A stretch of DNA of 64,000 bases from an uncultured beta proteobacterium (GCA_963776175.1 CAVZLP010000013.1:2479-66478), one strand, 5' to 3'; shown: positions 32,705 through 40,395, counted from the stretch's first letter. The notes: generated by a model not told the origin, from the letters alone. Numbers and translations: made by a program.

Positions 32705-32814
32705 GGTTGCGACAATAAGAACGGCCCTGCGGCGCAATCGCACCGCAGGGCCAAACGTTGGTCGTTCCGGCAAGGGCTCGGGGGAAGAGCAGCCCAGCGG
32801 CTCGGCGGGATGCG

Positions 32815-33891
32815 CTACTGCTGCCGAGCGACGGTCTTCGCTGTTGCGGTAGAGGTGCTGGACAACACGGGTTGGCCGGTGCTGTCGCCCAGCGCGTGCT
32901 TCACGCCGTCGGCCGCATAAATGGCATCGCACAGTCGCTGGAGCATCGGCACGCCGCGGACCTCGGTCTCGAACAGCGGCACGATGGCGCGCACGCTGCC
33001 GTCGAACTCCTTCCAGATCGTTCGCATGTGCTCCTGCTGCATGGCCACGCGGTTCTTCACGAACTCGGCGGCGTCGGGACCGACCGACGCGGGATCGATG
33101 ACCATGTTGACGAGGACGCCGCCCACCGGGATGCCGAAGTCCTTGAACCACTGGATGAAGCGCGTGACCACCGCGATGGGCAGCGCCTCCGGCAGGGTCA
33201 CGAAGTAGAACGCCGTCAGCTTCGGGTCGGTGAGGAGCACGCGCGCGTGCTCCATCCGGTCGCGGAAGGAGACGAGGTACTCCATCAGCGGGTCAGCCTC
33301 CTTCTTCTTCGTGAAGGAGAGCAGCTCGCGGAGAGTGCGCGCCTCGTCGCGGCTCTTCATCATCTTGTTGACCCACAGCGCGTACACCTTCGACATGCCG
33401 AGCAGGCGCCGCGCGTTGGCGGTGGGCGCGGTGTCGAAGACGTAGACGTCGTACTCGTTCTCGAACATGAGGTCGATCATGTTCTCGAACATCGCCGACT
33501 CCTCGAACGCGGGGTTCATCGTCGCGGTCTCGACGAACTCGTCGGCCTTGGTCGTGATGTCGGCGAACTTGAGGAACCAGCGGATCTTCTCCCGGATCTG
33601 CACCTTGCTGCGCTCGATGGTCTGCTTGGTCTCGATCTCGTACGCCCAGAGGTTCGGCACGCCCTCGACGGGAACGTGCTTGCCCAGCACGTCCTGGCCG
33701 AACAGGTTGGTCAGGCTGTGGACCGGATTCGTCGACGCGAGCAGCGTCCGGCGTCCCTGCCGGGCGAGCCCGATGGCGGCGGCGGCGGCGAAGACGGTCT
33801 TGCCCACGCCGCCCTTGCCGCCGAAGAAGAGGTACTTCAGCGTCGGGTGCTCGGTCAGATAGCGGCCCATCGGCATCGTGATCTCTGGCAT
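32815..33891 (-). CDS. Get3/ArsA-family ATPase, paralogue 2
   Basis: Deviant Walker A FFGGKGGVGKT. Also NPVHSL, EESAMFE and FDTAPTANARRLL (DTAPT kept, GHT lost). Confidence 0.85.
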   Translation of the reverse strand: MPEITMPMGRYLTEHPTLKYLFFGGKGGVGKTVFAAAAAIGLARQGRRTLLASTNPVHSLTNLFGQDVLGKHVPVEGVPNLWAYEIETKQTIERSKVQIREKIRWFLKFADITTKADEFVETATMNPAFEESAMFENMIDLMFENEYDVYVFDTAPTANARRLLGMSKVYALWVNKMMKSRDEARTLRELLSFTKKKEADPLMEYLVSFRDRMEHARVLLTDPKLTAFYFVTLPEALPIAVVTRFIQWFKDFGIPVGGVLVNMVIDPASVGPDAAEFVKNRVAMQQEHMRTIWKEFDGSVRAIVPLFETEVRGVPMLQRLCDAIYAADGVKHALGDSTGQPVLSSTSTATAKTVARQQ

Positions 33892-33904
33892 GGCGAGTCC
33901 TTCG

Positions 33905-34876
33905 CTAGGCGAACATACCGGCGGCCAGCTTCTCGATCATCGGCAGTCCCGTGACGTCGCGCTCCATCTCCGGCACCATCGCCAGCACGTGGTCGCCGAA
34001 GGCCGTGCGCACGCCGAGCAGGTTCTGGTCCTGCATGGCGATGCGGCGGCGCAGATACTCCGGGATGTTCTGGCCCAGCAGCTCGTGCGGGATAACCCGG
34101 TTCACGACGTACCCGGCGAGCGGTACGTCGAACTGCGCGAACATCTTGGCCGCCTTTTGCGTGTCGTTGATGACCCCGGCCTCCGGGATCACCACGAAGA
34201 AAAAAGCCGTCTTCGTCTTGTCCGTGAGGATCCCGGCCGACGTGTTGATGCGGTTCTTGATGTAGAGCAGTTCCTGGAGAATCTGGTCCTGCTCGGTGAT
34301 CTTCTCGCGCCGGATGCGGCTGACCATCTCCTCGTACTCGCGCATCTCCTCGCGCAGCTTGGTGACCTTGTTGATCCACTCGTCGTAGACCTTGGCCATC
34401 GACAGGTAGTAAAGCGCGTGGCCGAGAGGTACCAGGTCGTAGATGTAATAGTCGTAGTCGCCCTTCATGACGACGTCCACCACGGCGTCGAACATCGCGC
34501 TCTCTTCCATCGCCGGCTCGGCGCTCGCCGCCTGGATGTAGTTCTCGATCTCGTCCGGCACGGCGGGCAGACCGTACATGTCGAGGATCTTCTGGCGGAT
34601 CTCCTGTTGGTAGGCCCGGATGTGGCTGTCCGCGTCGATCTCCTGGGCCCAGAGCTTATCCATGATTTGGACAGGCCCCTTGCCGAAGATGTCGCGCTTG
34701 AAGATGTCGGTGAGCGATGCTTGGGGGTCCACGGAGAACACGAGGACCTTCTTCCCGTGGCTTGCGAGCCAGTACGCCGCCGCTGCGGAGAAGGTAGTCT
34801 TGCCGACTCCGCCGCCACCGCCGAACATGATGTACCGGCGCTCGGGATGCTGCAGGAACACGTCCTTGAATCCCAC
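33905..34876 (-). CDS. Get3/ArsA-family ATPase, paralogue 1
   Basis: GTG start at 34876 with an AGGGAG RBS. FGGGGGVGKT, VDPQASL, EESAMFD and YDLVPLGHALYYL (GH kept, DTAPT lost). The 512-aa track ORF 33905..35443 is a read-through artefact. Confidence 0.85.
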   Translation of the reverse strand: MGFKDVFLQHPERRYIMFGGGGGVGKTTFSAAAAYWLASHGKKVLVFSVDPQASLTDIFKRDIFGKGPVQIMDKLWAQEIDADSHIRAYQQEIRQKILDMYGLPAVPDEIENYIQAASAEPAMEESAMFDAVVDVVMKGDYDYYIYDLVPLGHALYYLSMAKVYDEWINKVTKLREEMREYEEMVSRIRREKITEQDQILQELLYIKNRINTSAGILTDKTKTAFFFVVIPEAGVINDTQKAAKMFAQFDVPLAGYVVNRVIPHELLGQNIPEYLRRRIAMQDQNLLGVRTAFGDHVLAMVPEMERDVTGLPMIEKLAAGMFA

Positions 34877-34887
34877 GGTGTCGCTCC

Positions 34888-35167
34888 CTAGAACATCGCG
34901 TCCGCGACGTCCTTCTCGCGCAACATGCGCCGTTTCCACGTGGCGATCTGCGGCACGACGTAAGGCAGGAGCCGCAGGCTGTAGTACGGCGGCAGGATCG
35001 GGAATGCCGAGGAGGTCGCCCATCGTGATCAGGATGAACAGATGCTCCATCGATGCGCGTGTGCGCAGGGCCGCGCGGCTCATGTCGTGGGCGGCCATGC
35101 CGTACACGGTGTCGGTGATGTTGTGCCACAGCCTCTTCGCCGCCGATACTTTCTCTTGCTCTGTCAT
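34888..35167 (-). CDS. small conserved hypothetical protein B (PPYY-LRLLP-VVPQ-TWKR motif), frameshifted as assembled
   Basis: AAGGAG RBS. Reads MTEQEKVSAAKRLWHNITDTVYGMAAHDMSRAALRTRASMEHLFILITMGDLLGIP. After correcting one base in the G/C run near 35000 it continues ILPPYYSLRLLPYVVPQIATWKRRMLREKDVADAMF*. It is a paralogue of 35181..35418. Confidence 0.6.
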
Positions 35168-35180
35168 GGCCGTCTCCTTT

Positions 35181-35418
35181 TCATACACCGTGCAGGTGGT
35201 GCTCGTGATCGCTGCCGAGCTCGCGCTCGCGCAGGACGCTGCCGCTTCCAGGTCTCGACCTGCGGCACGACCCAGGGCAGCAGGCGCAGCCCGTAGTACG
35301 GCGGCAGGATCGGCACGCCGAGCATGTCGCCGAACACGCCGAGCATGAACAGCGTCTCCATCGTGGCGCGGATCTCCAGCGCCTGCTGCGCGATCTCGTA
35401 GCCGGACATCCCGTACAT
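35181..35418 (-). CDS. small conserved hypothetical protein A (PPYY-LRLLP-VVPQ-TWKR motif), frameshifted near the 3' end
   Basis: MYGMSGYEIAQQALEIRATMETLFMLGVFGDMLGVPILPPYYGLRLLPWVVPQVETWKR, then (shift near 35240) SVLRERELGSDHEHHLHGV*. The start is uncertain. Similarity to paralogue B continues upstream, so it may start at 35480 with another frameshift. Confidence 0.5.
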
Positions 35419-35478
35419 GAACTCGCGTAGCGCGCGCCTCCACCCGCCGGCGGCGGGCGTGTTATCGTCCCTTCCGCC

Positions 35479-36114
35479 ATGACCGAACTCGTCGCTGTTG
35501 TCGCGGTCGCGGTCGTCGCCTGGTTTGCCGCCGGTACGATCTGGAACGTCCGCAAAGGAAGCGCGCTCATGCGCTGGATGCAGGGCGGGCCTGCCGGCGC
35601 TCGGCGAGCGCAGCACCGTGCGCTGGCTGGGCTCGACCGCGGTCGAGATGGTGATCCGGCGACGCCAAGGTCCCGTTCGCCGGCGCGACGCTGGTCATCT
35701 TTCTCGAGGCGCGCGATCTGCCCTGGATGTGGGCTCTCGGGCGCAGCCGCGGACGGCGCGATACGCTGATCGTCCGAGGCGTGCTGCGCCAGGCCCCGAC
35801 GCTCGAGTTCGAAGCGCTCGACCCCGTCAGCTGGTCCGGTCGTGACGCGCTCCCACGGGTGCCTCGCGAGTGGCCGGTGCACGAGGCGGCGAGCCCCGGG
35901 CGCGTGGTCGTGCATTGCGCGAGCGCCGCGGCGCTTGCGCGCGCGGACGCGCTGCTGGCGCTGGCCCAGCGCGCCGGGCTGGCGGCGCGGCGGATGTCCG
36001 TCCGCCGCACCGAGCCGAACTTCCAGCTTCACGTCGCGCCTTCCCGATCGCCAGGCAGGCCGCGCGCGAGTTCTTCGAAGCGGTGCACGCCCTCGCCGAG
36101 CTCGCGCTGCCTGA
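35479..36114 (+). CDS. hypothetical membrane-anchored protein, several frameshifts; 3' end uncertain
   Basis: High-GC3 + strand reading: MTELVAVVAVAVVAWFAAGTIWNVRKGSALMRWMQGG / LPALGERSTVRWLGSTAVEMVIRR / AKVPFAGATLVIFLEARDLPWMW...VVVHCASAAALARADALLALAQRAGLAARRMSVRRTEPNFQLHV. The minus-strand ORFs here are Arg/Ser-rich shadows. Confidence 0.4.
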
Positions 36115-36128
36115 CACGATCCAGGCGC

Positions 36129-37641
36129 CTAGGCATGCGCCGCAGGCGGCACAGCCGCCGGGTGCGGGAGAGGCGCCGCGGGTGTCGCGCCATGGCGGAC
36201 GTAGGCCTTGTACCCGTCCCAGCCGATGAGGATGGCCGCCACGAAGAGCAGCACGGAGACCGCGATCATGGCCCAGGCGCCCCCGACCGGCAGCGCGCTC
36301 ATCTTCGGATTCGCCGCGATGGTCACATAGAGGTTCCTCGCCGTGACGATGGTCGCCGCCAGCGTGGTCACGTACATGAAGATCATCGGCACGACCGCGT
36401 AGGTCGGATTGCGCTTCTCCGACTTGAGCCATACCGACACGACCAGCAGGCTCAGAGCCGCCATCAGCTGGTTGGACGCGCCGAACATCTGCCAGAGGTA
36501 AACCCACGTTCCGGTCAGCACCAGCGCAGCCGTGAAGCCCATGGAGATGAAGCTCGCGACGTGCATGTTGCGCATGGGCGGGATGGCGTCGCCAACCCAC
36601 TCGGCGAGCGTCACGCGCATCACGCGGAACACGAGCTGCGTCACGGTCAGCACGATGATCACGAAGGTAGCGAAGCCGAGCGCGGTGCCGAACGTCTCGG
36701 GGATGAGCCCGAAGGTTCCGGCGTACACGAGCTTGCCAACGCCGATCGCGAACCGGCCGCCGCCACCGCCGGCTCCGGCGATGGAGACGGCAGTCAGAGA
36801 CAGCAGCGCCAGGGGGAACTCGCCAAACAACATCGCGCCTGCGCCGACCGGCAGTGCGTCGGTGTCGTACTCGAGCTGCCGCGCAGTTCCGATCGAGCCG
36901 ACGAGCGCGTGCCAGCCCGAGATGGCGCCGCAGGCGATGGTGACAAAGAGCATCGGCCACAGCGGCTGCCACGCCACGCCTTCCTTGATGCGCGAAGCCG
37001 AGGTCCGTCACCGCCGGCAGCGCGAACGCGCCAATGAGCGCGCCCGAGGCGTCCTGCGTGCCGAGGAGAGGCGCGACGACCATCCCGAACGCGCTCAGGA
37101 GAATGGTGATGGATGTGATCCAGAAGCCGATGTAGTTCACGGGCTGCGCGAAGCGCCAGATCGGCAGATTCGCCCCAAGGTAACTGAAGGCGAAGAGGAA
37201 GACCATCCACCAGACGTAATTGGGCAGCGTCTTGAGGAGGCCCGTGCTCGCGTCATACGCCGGCGTGCTCGCGCGCTTGCCGTCCTTGCCCGGCGCGGGG
37301 ATGCGCGGGTCTGCAGCGGTCGGATCCTCAACCGCGAAGAGCGGCTGGCGCTCGGTGATCGCGTCCACCGCGTTGTTAAGCTGCACCACGGCGGCGGCCA
37401 CGGGTCCTTGCACCAGCGTGCCTTTTTCGTCGCGGTGCTGGCCCCACGGTCCGGCCGCCATGCCGACGAGCGTAAGGGCGACGACGAAAACGGTGACGCC
37501 CATGATGCCCATCTTCCAGCGATACATCATCTGCCCGGCGAGCAGCCCCATCAGCGCGAGCATCACGATGCCGAACGGAACGTCGGGACGCGCGGAGAAA
37601 ATCGCCGCCAGGATGCCGACGAACGCACCGGCCAGCAGCAT
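36129..37641 (-). CDS. CstA-like (carbon starvation protein A family) permease, N-terminally short, one frameshift as assembled
   Basis: WPMLFVTIACGAISGWHALVGSIGTARQL plus many TM helices. The frame change is near 36995-37005. The canonical CstA N-terminus (the GHHFAAIAGAGP region) is absent and the 258 nt upstream look non-coding. Confidence 0.7.
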
Positions 37642-37902
37642 CAATTGTTCGCTTCACAACCAAGGCGCGTATTGATCTGCGTCAACACCGATAGTCTTAC
37701 CGCCTGATAAAGGAATTGAGGCCGCAGTTGCGTTAGAGACGCGTTGCGAAATGGGTTCCTCACTCTGCGCGATTGCGCGACCGAAGCGCGCCTCCTCCTG
37801 TCAGAGGGAGCAAAGAATGGAAGTGCTCTAGTTGATCTGCAACGTCGCTGGTGTCACGACGACGTTACCCGTGTCGACAACCGCCGAGCAGAACGGCTGC
37901 AG

Positions 37903-38895
37903 CTACGGTTGCGTCTTCGTCCAGCTAGAATCCGGATTGAAACGCGTCATCTTCGAGGCGATTGACGACGTCGCCTTGCCGAGATTCTTCTGATACACGA
38001 CGCCTTCGTGATTGACGACTAACGTCATCACGCCTGAAGTACCCCAGCGCGCCGGGTAGGCTACGAGCGCAAAACCACCGATCATCTTGCCGTCAGCAAC
38101 GTAGTCGTACGCACCGTTCGGAGCATCGCGGCCCTGTCCAGTAAGTATCTTGTAGAAATATCCGTGATAGGGTTCGTGGCTGGCGTTCTTGCTCTTACCG
38201 TAACCCTCTTCCTTCGCCTTCGCCGCGAGCGGACCGAGGGGACTTAATGGCTGCCCTTCTTTGGTCGGCCAGTAGAGGCCGTCCTTCTTGCCGGATGTGC
38301 TGACGAGTTTCTTGGCGTACTCGTGCATGCCGTCGCGATTGCCTTGCGTCATCGCGTATTCGCGCTGGGCGTCCACGTAGGCAAGGCAGACCTGGATCGC
38401 GGCCAGCTCGTTACGGCCGATACGCCGATTGAGAATTTCCTCCGCGCCGGCCCGGACGTCGAATCTCCACCCATCGGCACGCTTGACGATGGGAAACGGA
38501 AGCGGCCAATCGTTTTCGCCGATGACCAACGTCGCTTTGGCATCACCGTCGAGTTCGATCCTCGAATTTTTGTCGAAGGCGGCAACGAAACGTGCGCGCC
38601 CCTGGCGGTCGGCTACGGGATCCCCCGAGCTGATCAGCTTGTCGCTGCCAGGGCCGAGCACCGCCAGGATGCGCGCCCGGTCGTCGTCTCTCACTGCTGC
38701 GACCAGCGCCGCAGTCGCAGCCTGTGGCGTCGTGAAGTGTTGCTGCAGCCGTGCGGGCACTTTCGCCGCAGGCGTATCGGCGGCCAATGCAAGCGGCGCG
38801 AAAACAGCGCTTAGCGACGCCAGCACGACACCCGCTATCGCCGGCCAGCGGCAAAGGTAATGCGTCATCGAATCCTCAGGCGTGTGCTCAGACAT
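37903..38895 (-). CDS. DUF2950-family secreted protein
   Basis: Signal peptide. Contains WPLPFPIV..DGWRFD, NELAAIQVCLAYVDAQREYA, GLYWPT, HGYFYKIL and GGFALVAYPARWGTSGVMT. Confidence 0.8.
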   Translation of the reverse strand: MSEHTPEDSMTHYLCRWPAIAGVVLASLSAVFAPLALAADTPAAKVPARLQQHFTTPQAATAALVAAVRDDDRARILAVLGPGSDKLISSGDPVADRQGRARFVAAFDKNSRIELDGDAKATLVIGENDWPLPFPIVKRADGWRFDVRAGAEEILNRRIGRNELAAIQVCLAYVDAQREYAMTQGNRDGMHEYAKKLVSTSGKKDGLYWPTKEGQPLSPLGPLAAKAKEEGYGKSKNASHEPYHGYFYKILTGQGRDAPNGAYDYVADGKMIGGFALVAYPARWGTSGVMTLVVNHEGVVYQKNLGKATSSIASKMTRFNPDSSWTKTQP

Positions 38896-38903
38896 GTCGT
38901 GTG

Positions 38904-40130
38904 TCAGCGCCGCTGCGCGCCGCCTTGTGGAGGCGGCCCCGGCCTGGGTGCCGCCGAAGGCGCGCGACCGACGGGCGCCGGTGCCGACGGAATCGATTGG
39001 CGGCTCTGCAAGCCGCGCTGCGCATTGGTCTGCGTCTGCTGACGCGAGAGCCCTGGATCGAACGGTGCGGCACGTCCGGGCGAGGGTGCCGGCCGGACCG
39101 CAAACGGCGTGGGCACGCCGGCGGCTGGCGCCTGCCGCACAGCATTCGGCGCCTGTCGCAAGGCATTGGGAACCTGCGGCATCGCCCTCGGCGATTCGCG
39201 CGTTACGTTCGGTGCCGGCGCGCGCTGGATGCGTTCATAGCCACGGAAGTCCTGTCTCGAACGCACGGCATTCGGATCCGTCCTCGCGAACCGGTCGCGT
39301 GTCGTTGCATTGGGATAAGCAACCCCGCGCCGGTGCGGCGGCGAATGCTGCCAAGTGCCATCCTGCGGAACGCGCGGATGCCTCGGGTTATTCCAGAAGC
39401 GATTGTTGTGATCATCGATCGCGATGCGGTGGCCGTGCCAATGCGGGTGCGCCCAGCCCCAGTGGTTGTACCAGATCGGCCATGGGGCACCGAAGAAAAT
39501 TCCGATCGTGTACACCGGGCAGAACGGATAGGCATAGCTCGGCGGAGGGCACCAGAACCACGGCGGATATGCCGGCGCCCACCACGGACCGTAAATGAGC
39601 AGAGGATTGTAGACCGGCACGTACACGACGTCGGGTTGCGGCGTGTCGATGACGATGTCGTCGTCCTGCATCGTCACCGCCAATTGCGACGTCGTCTGCA
39701 AATTGCCGGCGGCCACGGCCTTCTGGCGCAACGACTGCACGGTGTCCATCACGCGCGGCTGATCGACGAGGAATGCGTCGCCCAATCGTTGCGTCCATTC
39801 GAGCTTGTCGTTCATCATCGCCAGAACCTGCGGATACGCAGCGAGCGATTGCACGCTCGGATCCCAATTCCTGTCCGTCAGCGCCTGGTCGAGCGCATCG
39901 CCGCGGAGGTCGGGATTCTGCTGAACGAATCGCGCGGCTTCCACGACTTCAAGCGGATACGTCGCAGCGATCAGGATCTGCGTCAGCAACTGGTCCGGAT
40001 AGAGAGCGATGGGCGCCAGCAACTGGTCGAGTTCATCCTGGCTGTAAGCAGGCTCGTCAGCAGTCTGTGCGCCGACCGGCGTGACGACGAATGCCAGGAG
40101 AGCCAGCGCGCCAATCAGAAAGCATCGCAT
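38904..40130 (-). CDS. DUF3300-family secreted protein with Pro-rich C-terminus
   Basis: Signal MRCFLIGALALLAFVV. Contains LLAPIALYPDQLLTQILIAATYPLEVVEAARF and WDPSVQSLAAYPQVL, with a proline/arginine-rich tail. Confidence 0.8.
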   Translation of the reverse strand: MRCFLIGALALLAFVVTPVGAQTADEPAYSQDELDQLLAPIALYPDQLLTQILIAATYPLEVVEAARFVQQNPDLRGDALDQALTDRNWDPSVQSLAAYPQVLAMMNDKLEWTQRLGDAFLVDQPRVMDTVQSLRQKAVAAGNLQTTSQLAVTMQDDDIVIDTPQPDVVYVPVYNPLLIYGPWWAPAYPPWFWCPPPSYAYPFCPVYTIGIFFGAPWPIWYNHWGWAHPHWHGHRIAIDDHNNRFWNNPRHPRVPQDGTWQHSPPHRRGVAYPNATTRDRFARTDPNAVRSRQDFRGYERIQRAPAPNVTRESPRAMPQVPNALRQAPNAVRQAPAAGVPTPFAVRPAPSPGRAAPFDPGLSRQQTQTNAQRGLQSRQSIPSAPAPVGRAPSAAPRPGPPPQGGAQRR

Positions 40131-40395
40131 ACGGAGAGTGCGTGAACGACCGGATGCTCGACGCGACGTCGACGGCGGAAGCCTGCTGAAACAAAGAGTC
40201 ATGCTGCAACTGTGCGCTGATAAAACGCATCGTGCGATCTGATTTGTAACATTCTATGGCCACGCGGCGCCGATTCGTCAGTTATTGAAACGAGCGTTGA
40301 CCCAGATCAATATACAAGCGTTGAATCTGGCCGAGCGAGAGCGAGTTCGGCATGATTCGCATGACAATCACAACCGCGCGCAGACGCGTGTATGC

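Follow-up and report, generated by a model that had tools for sequence, protein, structure and literature searches.

The closest described relatives of the locus reported here are the CstA operons of Castillo and Saier (Int J Microbiol 2010:187373; PMC2963123), who used SEED gene neighborhoods and tree congruence to recognize 26 cases in which single-domain ArsA homologues of ~330 amino acids (aa) lie in operons with CstA. A ~90-aa protein with a single transmembrane segment, CstX, was encoded in 24 of those 26 cases, and another single-segment protein of ~210 aa, CstY, in five archaea (PMC2963123). Their cluster 15 held two adjacent ArsA paralogues (25-31% identical) in Pyrobaculum arsenaticum and Symbiobacterium thermophilum, the former also with two CstX paralogues; the trees of CstA, CstX and the ArsA homologue were congruent, ars genes were never found together with cst genes, and the Asp of an "SXD" motif was noted in passing to be replaceable by Asn only (PMC2963123). 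The ArsA homologue was proposed to energize CstA, with CstX as the linker (PMC2963123). Here, we analyzed a stretch of 64,000 nucleotides (nt) from an uncultured beta proteobacterium (the window; all coordinates are counted from its start), in which four genes on the minus strand encode two small proteins and two Get3/ArsA-like ATPases close to the remnant of a CstA-family permease gene. A first-pass annotation of this DNA ranked them as its best candidate for an undescribed system; both the association and a functional proposal had been published in the 2010 survey, and the system is thus already described by comparative genomics, the window carrying its paired-ATPase, two-CstX form. What is new in the present analysis is the catalytic asymmetry of the ATPase pair, the simplest reading of which is an obligate heterodimer with one hydrolytic and one degenerate site. 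The cassette in the window consists of the following features.

33891..32815, minus strand: ATPase 2, ATG start, 358 aa, intact, Get3/ArsA fold.
34876..33905, minus strand: ATPase 1, GTG start, 323 aa, intact, Get3/ArsA fold.
35167..34888, minus strand: CstX-B (small protein B; DUF7990, B-type), ATG start, 92 aa once a 1-nt insertion is removed, isoelectric point 9.5.
~35460..35181, minus strand: CstX-A (small protein A; DUF7990, A-type), ~92 aa once a 1-nt insertion is removed.
35479..36115, plus strand: divergent gene for a 210-aa protein (p209, CstY-like), with a transmembrane helix at the N terminus and then an alpha/beta domain.
36129..37644, minus strand: remnant of a CstA-family permease gene, residues ~141-644 of a 644-aa orthologue, PF02554 match.
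32722..32753, minus strand: strong terminator-like hairpin, 14-bp stem (11 G-C pairs), T-rich tail, ~60 nt past the ATPase 2 stop codon.

By profile score, both ATPases are clearly members of the Get3/ArsA fold family, the class to which their motifs had first pointed (PF02374, 217.1 and 217.9 bits against a cut-off of 24.3; TIGR00345, the TRC40/GET3/ArsA family, 213.8 and 208.6 bits against 135). All of the motifs quoted in the first-pass annotation are present: ATPase 1 carries FGGGGGVGKT and DLVPLGHALYYL, and ATPase 2 carries FGGKGGVGKT and DTAPTANARRLL. The two proteins are 36% identical, and the complete DTAPTGH switch II signature is found in neither, one half being kept by each (DLVPLGH in ATPase 1, DTAPTAN in ATPase 2). 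Motifs were counted in 71 orthologues of ATPase 1 and 61 of ATPase 2. Switch II reads DLVPLGHALYY in 68 of the former and DTAPTANARRL in 58 of the latter; judged from these sequences, the split is not due to chance. Switch I of ATPase 1 is SVDPQASL in 71/71 orthologues, which thereby keep the catalytic Asp, and that of ATPase 2 is STNPVHSL in 60/61, in which Asn replaces the catalytic residue and takes the alignment position of the Asp in STDPAHSL, the archaeal Get3 motif. This Asp (D57 in yeast Get3) is catalytic and positions and activates the attacking water (PMC10248533). The Walker A motif of ATPase 2 is equally constant (GGKGGVGKT in 60/61 orthologues). For ATPase 1 it is GGKGGLGKT in 55/71 orthologues and GGGGGVGKT in 15/71, the window copy included, whose P-loop (34810-34840) has Gly in place of the signature Lys of the deviant Walker A; since the remaining orthologues keep GGKGGLGKT, loss of the Lys is clade-specific and no defining trait of the pair. 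Neither ATPase has a CxxC zinc motif (the positions of archaeal CDFC/CEFC read AAEF in ATPase 2). There is no Cys at all in ATPase 1, whose insert region is highly charged, and a single one, near the C terminus, in ATPase 2. The closest relatives of the window's ATPase 2 are 91-93% identical, and an exact look-up found no identical sequence on record.

The same split of motifs was observed in a distant paired-ATPase system, and the lone ATPase encoded at a Cytobacillus locus together with CstA and a cory-CC-star protein was canonical (GGKGGVGKS, STDPAHNL and DTAPTGHTIRLL). Three observations give the pair the look of an obligate heterodimer, as had been suspected from the switch II halves: conservation of the complementary degeneracy across phyla, the constant co-occurrence of the two genes and the canonical motifs of the single-ATPase relative. 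The simplest reading of the sequences is accordingly stated here as a prediction: an asymmetric dimer with one hydrolytic and one degenerate site would have arisen by duplication and then subfunctionalization, and ATPase 2 would bind ATP and hydrolyze it poorly. An arrangement of one active and one degenerate site is familiar from heterodimeric ABC transporters.

Source annotations call relatives of these ATPases "arsenite-transporting ATPase," which raises the reading that they are ArsA proper, the ATPase of an arsenite/antimonite pump, or else a stress-protection pair of the BagAB type. BagAB is likewise a heterodimer of two Get3-like proteins, its possible orthology (as Rv3679/Rv3680) had been mentioned at the outset, and both ATPases gave sub-threshold matches to ArsA and BagA/BagB models. 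Those matches lie far below the cut-offs: 112.9 and 91.1 bits against 650 for TIGR04291 (ArsA proper), 54.9 and 41.2 bits against 400 for NF053622 (BagA), and 38.9 and 46.3 bits against 521 for NF053621 (BagB). Among solved structures, archaeal Get3 homologues (PDB 3ug6 and 3zq6) were nearest to both ATPases (E values of 1e-50 to 1e-54), followed by ArsA at 1e-26 to 1e-32, and BagAB (PDB 6bs3) aligned over the P-loop region only, at ~1e-7 versus 1e-52 for archaeal Get3. Both ATPases are single-domain proteins (323 and 358 aa) without the three-Cys metalloid site, no ars genes lie near the cassette in the window, and none accompanied cst genes in the 2010 survey (PMC2963123). BagAB orthology and true ArsA membership were rejected on scores and architecture, and we regard this reading as effectively refuted.

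The cassette is widespread. A scan of one genome per species, with an alignment of 10 closer sequences as the query, returned at least 588 matches, each a species-level genome. Synteny was assessed by tblastn of the six products against 80 of the loci, with order judged where the flank was sufficient. In every such locus, the order and orientation were CstA (+), 210-aa gene (-), CstX-A, CstX-B, ATPase 1 and ATPase 2; the co-occurrence of small proteins, paired ATPases and CstA permease, which had been set beforehand as a test, was thus found throughout. CstA was intact in all related loci, which span Beta-, Alpha- and Gammaproteobacteria, Acidobacteriota, Chloroflexota and Myxococcota, and the same order recurred in metagenome loci. 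Between Betaproteobacteria and Chloroflexota, identity was 73-80% for CstX-B, 72-76% for ATPase 1, 70-75% for ATPase 2, 64-72% for CstA, 51-64% for CstX-A and 29-47% for the 210-aa protein. CstX-B is therefore conserved at least as strongly as the ATPases, as expected of a subunit that is mostly interface. Variants were also seen (loci are given by our L numbers): Anaerolineales have a third DUF7990 gene right after ATPase 2 (L045:8294-8533, L052:8359-8613, L057, L060 and others), the 210-aa gene has moved downstream in two Dehalococcoidia loci, and a distant DUF7990 member again lies in an arrangement of CstA, two DUF7990 genes and two ArsA-like genes. A Cytobacillus spongiae replicon encodes, one after another, carbon starvation protein A, a hypothetical protein, an 85-aa cory-CC-star protein and an ArsA family ATPase. 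Some intact cassettes have a small open reading frame (ORF) directly upstream of cstA, as in L092:3646-3855 (69 aa, overlapping cstA by 4 nt) and L001:4894-5058 (54 aa).

Within the window, the gaps between CstX-A, CstX-B, ATPase 1 and ATPase 2 are 13, 11 and 13 nt, and Shine-Dalgarno-like sequences precede CstX-B (AAGGAG) and ATPase 1 (GGGAG). Given gaps of 11-13 nt and the terminal hairpin, the four genes appear to form an operon-like unit closed by a terminator-like hairpin, which bears out the operon first proposed from their close spacing.

The two small proteins are true paralogues, as was first noted, yet they are not without a named family, as was also claimed. A Pfam scan of both and of 69 family members returned no family and no recurrent weak match to PF04328 or to another model, because PF25952 (DUF7990) was absent from the Pfam copy used. 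Both small genes of loci L001-L004 have precomputed PF25952 matches, as do proteins that share 96-98% identity with the corrected CstX-B, and on this evidence the CstX proteins belong to DUF7990. Removal of one base turns CstX-B into a 92-aa protein, to which many intact proteins of 92 aa align end to end with 96-98% identity. DUF7990-like proteins formed 386 clusters at E <= 1e-3 among 1.84 billion representative proteins, and tblastn of CstX-B against plasmids gave zero matches. We equate DUF7990 proteins with the CstX of 2010 by size, position and the link to the Cytobacillus cory-CC-star protein; our literature search turned up nothing on CstX, DUF7990 or cory-CC-star after the 2010 survey. 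The cory-CC-star model (NF041419) gave 27.0 and 28.1 bits for the two CstX proteins of the window, and 27-37 bits with relatives, against a cut-off of 80, and the DUF7990 profile aligned with the Cytobacillus protein in hhalign at a probability of 96.5% (E 7e-10). The CstX tails end ...HLHGV and ...DAMF, without the C-terminal Cys-Cys of cory-CC-star, which sequence comparison thus places as a distant relative of CstX; CstX is not a member. Homology of CstX to Escherichia coli YbdD/YjiX (PF04328) was considered because both follow cstA and because cory-CC-star and YbdD share an RCC ending; it was rejected (hhalign probability 0.3%, no BLASTP alignment). The cory-CC-star protein of Cytobacillus spongiae (L089:4661-4918, ...GIRCC) and E. 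coli ybdD (L091:3183-3380, ...GARCC) do both end in Arg-Cys-Cys, and neither hhalign nor BLASTP found homology between cory-CC-star and YbdD.

The CstX proteins have the conserved core YGM...R...E.LF.L..fGDl.G.PiLPPYYsLRLLPYvvP.i..WKRR.LRErD.TD, in which three Gly and two Pro are invariant, and they fall into two types, one per gene slot. The A type has a His-rich tail, [DES]H[ED][HY]HL[HED]G[VLIM] in 53/66 orthologues and DHEHHLHGV in the window; the B type ends in KD[VLI][SA]DAMF, KDVADAMF in the window. Lengths are 92 aa and ~92-99 aa, with one hydrophobic segment (Kyte-Doolittle 1.5-1.6 over 19 residues). An AlphaFold2 model built on a 69-sequence alignment (predicted local distance difference test score [pLDDT] 88) is a helical hairpin, with one helix over residues 3-53, a turn at GIPILP and a second helix over residues 60-82. 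Its tip is predicted to be hydrophobic and to carry the conserved Asp of the GD motif and the near-invariant Arg of LRLLP. This hairpin is a confident prediction and new in the present analysis; Foldseek of the model against PDB found no solved relative. Some DUF7990 members bear a homologous N-terminal extension of ~125 aa of no known family (P0230, P0189 and P0125; those of P0230 and P0189 are 39% identical), and P0155 reads as a CstA C terminus fused to DUF7990.

The divergent 210-aa protein, p209, is present in nearly all loci (absent from L085); its orthologues have 205-220 aa and an N-terminal transmembrane helix (an intact example is L002:7041-7673, minus strand), and no Pfam or NCBIfam family matched it. 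AlphaFold2 was run on a shallow alignment of 70-85% identity, and one of five models reached a pLDDT of 79 and a predicted template modeling score of 0.76, the other four having pLDDT values of 45-55; the shallow alignment probably explains why a single model was confident. Foldseek of that model against PDB returned two significant matches only, 7tm3 chain 4 (E 2.8e-4, template modeling score 0.63) and 6w6l chain 7 (E 2e-3), both with a probability of 1.0, and a sequence search identified both chains as CCDC47, the PAT-complex subunit of the endoplasmic reticulum multipass translocon. The model and CCDC47 have the same layout, with a transmembrane helix at the N terminus, then an alpha/beta domain in the cytosol and a helix at the end. 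CCDC47 differs in being larger, with a ribosome-binding coiled coil; the p209 model is of moderate quality and was not reproduced across the five AlphaFold2 models, and sequence and profile comparison showed no similarity (no Pfam match to PF07946, hhalign probability 0.1%). A CCDC47-like fold, new here, is a tentative suggestion of the modeling and is offered as a lead, not a finding.

Taken together, these four genes would make up one half, that of the ATPases and adaptors, of a conserved CstA-CstX-CstY-ArsA-homologue cassette of six genes. We put at about an even chance that its six products form a membrane complex in which an asymmetric ATPase heterodimer, tethered by CstX hairpins, drives or gates the CstA permease. 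From synteny, the conservation pattern, motif asymmetry and the hairpin prediction, we infer every physical contact and transport effect in this model. ATPase 1 and ATPase 2 would assemble into a heterodimer of the Get3/ArsA fold, between whose subunits the halves of the DTAPTGH switch II are divided. ATPase 1 would provide the sole hydrolytic site, since it keeps the switch I Asp, and ATPase 2 would bind ATP and keep the dimer closed, since it combines Asn in switch I with an intact P-loop. The CstX pair, as helical hairpins whose hydrophobic tip is braced by charged residues (the GD Asp and the LRLLP Arg), would tether the dimer to the permease and the membrane, such that ATP-driven closing and opening could be passed on to the permease. 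The outcome would be energized or gated transport, as ArsA provides for ArsB, and the 210-aa single-pass protein would be a further membrane-anchored subunit, perhaps also a tether.

Several points weigh against this model. No experiment is on record for any member of the system, and heterodimerization and the contacts among CstX, the ATPases and CstA are what we infer from genomes and models. The closest solved relatives of the ATPases are archaeal Get3 (E 1e-52), not ArsA (E 1e-26 to 1e-32), and these archaeal relatives are tail-anchor-binding chaperones. CCDC47, the sole structural match found with the p209 model, is a factor that acts in membrane-protein biogenesis. The CstA-family carriers E. 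coli CstA and BtsT are proton symporters that work without any ATPase. Neither CstA nor an ArsA-like gene lies within 7 kb of an orphan DUF7990 gene (L087:7001-7324), so the rule given in 2010, by which CstX is never found without CstA, does not hold universally. Finally, the CstA gene of the window is truncated though its ATPase genes are intact.

Some of these same points can be read as signs of a dedicated biogenesis machine, the idea preferred in the first-pass annotation. The Get3-like heterodimer would capture CstX hairpins or CstA segments and, aided by a CCDC47-like p209, deliver or insert them at the membrane, the ATPase serving assembly of the permease rather than its operation. The proximity to archaeal Get3 (3ug6 and 3zq6, E 1e-52 to 1e-54) fits such a role, as does the p209 model with its matches to this one intramembrane chaperone subunit of the PAT complex (Foldseek E 2.8e-4 and 2e-3); moreover, the hydrophobic segment of CstX (Kyte-Doolittle 1.6 over 19 residues) lies near the C terminus and is followed by a short basic tail, a loosely tail-anchor-like layout. 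However, that stretch is broken by an invariant Gly, a conserved Asp, a Gly-x-Pro and a conserved Pro-Pro, and AlphaFold2 renders it as the tip of a hairpin, not as a 20-residue transmembrane helix. Tail-anchor clients are normally poorly conserved, whereas CstX-B is ~75% identical across phyla. The CxxC zinc motif is absent and the insert region of ATPase 1 is highly charged, the CCDC47 match comes from the one confident AlphaFold2 model of five and lacks sequence support, and a one-to-one ratio of genes to a single permease is seen more typically in stable complexes. On balance, we consider a biogenesis machine unlikely. A still bolder version, which strikes us as quite improbable, would make the whole cassette a self-contained prokaryotic module for membrane-protein biogenesis or quality control, in which the asymmetric Get3-like ATPase, a CCDC47-related p209 and two hairpin adaptors chaperone the multipass CstA, and not a pump. 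We retain the tethered, CstA-coupled ATPase complex as the working model.

The start of CstX-A merits separate mention. The window copy has no canonical in-frame start codon upstream of the conserved GWRRALREF, the first in-frame ATG lying at 35418. The ATG at 35480, which the first-pass annotation had used as the end coordinate of the region, is out of frame with CstX-A and overlaps the start of the divergent 210-aa gene. An ACG at 35460-35458 aligns with the ATG of orthologues. In-frame ATG, GTG and TTG upstream of GW(R/K)RALREF are absent in many proteobacterial CstX-A orthologues (L010, L013, L018-L020, L024, L026, L031 and L034), short-read assemblies included; in this group, an ACG that follows GGAGG/GGAAGG is in exact alignment with the ATG of L001-L004, L014 and L015, and gene callers shorten CstX-A to 78 aa. 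In other lineages, CstX-A starts at an ATG within a CATG palindrome that it shares with the start of the divergent 210-aa gene. CstX-A may thus initiate at a noncanonical ACG, as the alignments suggest. Programmed frameshifting from the out-of-frame ATG was also considered and rejected, as no slippery heptamer was seen; a noncanonical start is preferred.

The copy of the cassette in the window is locally damaged, through mis-assembly or recent decay. Of the two homopolymer frameshifts reported earlier, the count stands, with one single-base insertion relative to orthologues in each CstX gene (~35004 [35000-35005] in CstX-B and ~35239 in CstX-A), and the cause does not, as these are not strictly homopolymer errors. 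The damage is also wider than was seen then: the p209 gene has at least four single-base insertions or deletions (indels), the cstA remnant has a frameshift near 36991, and at least eight single-base indels cluster in 34.9-37.0 kb. CstA homology begins abruptly at 37644, at residue 141 of the 644-aa orthologue, with the first ~140 codons missing and no N-terminal CstA fragment anywhere in the 64-kb window. The flanks of the cassette are different in each relative, and directly upstream of the truncated gene in the window lies an intact pair with no relation to the cassette.

37903-40202, minus strand: DUF2950 and DUF3300 gene pair, intact.

The 258 bp between the start of CstA homology and the DUF2950 gene are unrelated sequence of lower G+C content. 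Since flanking genes are full length against Pfam models and intact ORFs of up to 997 aa occur elsewhere in the window, the lesions are local and the assembly is not error-ridden overall. This last point, the missing CstA N terminus and the clustering of the indels would all suit a decaying remnant, in which the 5' end of cstA has been deleted, the indels are real and the ATPase genes are orphans being lost or reused. Against such decay, the corrected CstX-B is 96-98% and CstA residues 359-625, once the frameshift is bridged, 95.5% identical to intact orthologues, and many indels with almost no amino acid drift are the signature of consensus errors, unlike neutral decay. All single-base indels of the region fall within 2.7 kb of the cstA breakpoint, and assembly coverage is often poor next to such structural breakpoints; split genes of like kind occur in related loci from long-read metagenome-assembled genomes (L017, L022, L023, L026 and L050); and both ATPase genes (2 kb) are free of lesions. 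The closest relatives available are ~89% identical at the DNA level, and the nearest one, assembled from Illumina reads at 57x coverage, has the whole cassette intact. Genuine decay is in our view a minority possibility, somewhat unlikely but not negligible, and we favor, from the sequence pattern and the split genes of related assemblies, consensus errors next to the breakpoint.

Hundreds of bacterial species from soil and sediment, in at least six phyla, carry the cassette, with 65-80% identity between phyla, and the database names for its parts are "arsenite-transporting ATPase," "hypothetical protein" or DUF. Should the two ATPases indeed drive or gate CstA, they would follow ArsAB as a second, independent instance in which an ATPase of the Get3/ArsA fold makes a secondary carrier ATP-coupled, and would give a new view of CstA-family carbon and pyruvate uptake in oligotrophic bacteria. 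Were the role of the cassette biogenesis instead, no bacterial system would match a GET-like pathway more clearly, and a self-contained biogenesis or quality-control module would mean that CCDC47 has prokaryotic ancestors genetically linked to Get3-like ATPases. The conserved design of one active and one degenerate site is directly open to mutagenesis.

Among known systems, the DUF7990 and NF041419 "cory-CC-star" entries are names only, with no known function. BagA/BagB (Rv3679/Rv3680; PDB 6bs3) resemble the pair in being two adjacent, diverged Get3-like ATPase genes whose products heterodimerize, and differ in that only the P-loop region aligns, the NCBIfam scores fall far below cut-off and the gene neighborhood is another one. 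Get3/TRC40 and archaeal Get3 (3ug6, 3zq6) share the fold and the deviant Walker A and are the best structure matches; in contrast to these homodimers, the cassette ATPases have no CxxC zinc motif, would form a heterodimer of diverged paralogues and have one subunit without the catalytic Asp, and they are operon-linked to a permease and dedicated small proteins, whereas Get3 serves many tail-anchored clients. In the ArsA-ArsB pump, our working analogy for how the cassette may operate, a permease of the secondary-carrier type is likewise associated with an ATPase of the Get3/ArsA fold whose two nucleotide sites lie at the interface of a pseudo-dimer. ArsA is one fused two-domain polypeptide (~580 aa) with three metalloid-binding Cys and full DTAPTGH motifs, whereas the cassette has two separate, diverged ATPases, no three-Cys site, extra hairpin subunits and a permease of an unrelated family. 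Closest of all are the operons of Castillo and Saier, with ~330-aa single-domain ArsA homologues beside CstA and without ars genes, a ~90-aa CstX with one hydrophobic segment between cstA and the ATPase, a ~210-aa single-pass CstY, and the same functional proposal of an ATPase coupled to CstA via CstX. Their 26 cases, with CstY in five archaea only, compare with at least 588 species-level genomes here, and in these bacteria the CstY-sized gene lies on the opposite strand and is likened to CstY by size and single-pass build. The Asp-to-Asn change and the split switch II were not read in 2010 as the catalytic asymmetry that the ATPase pair of the present cassette is predicted to have.

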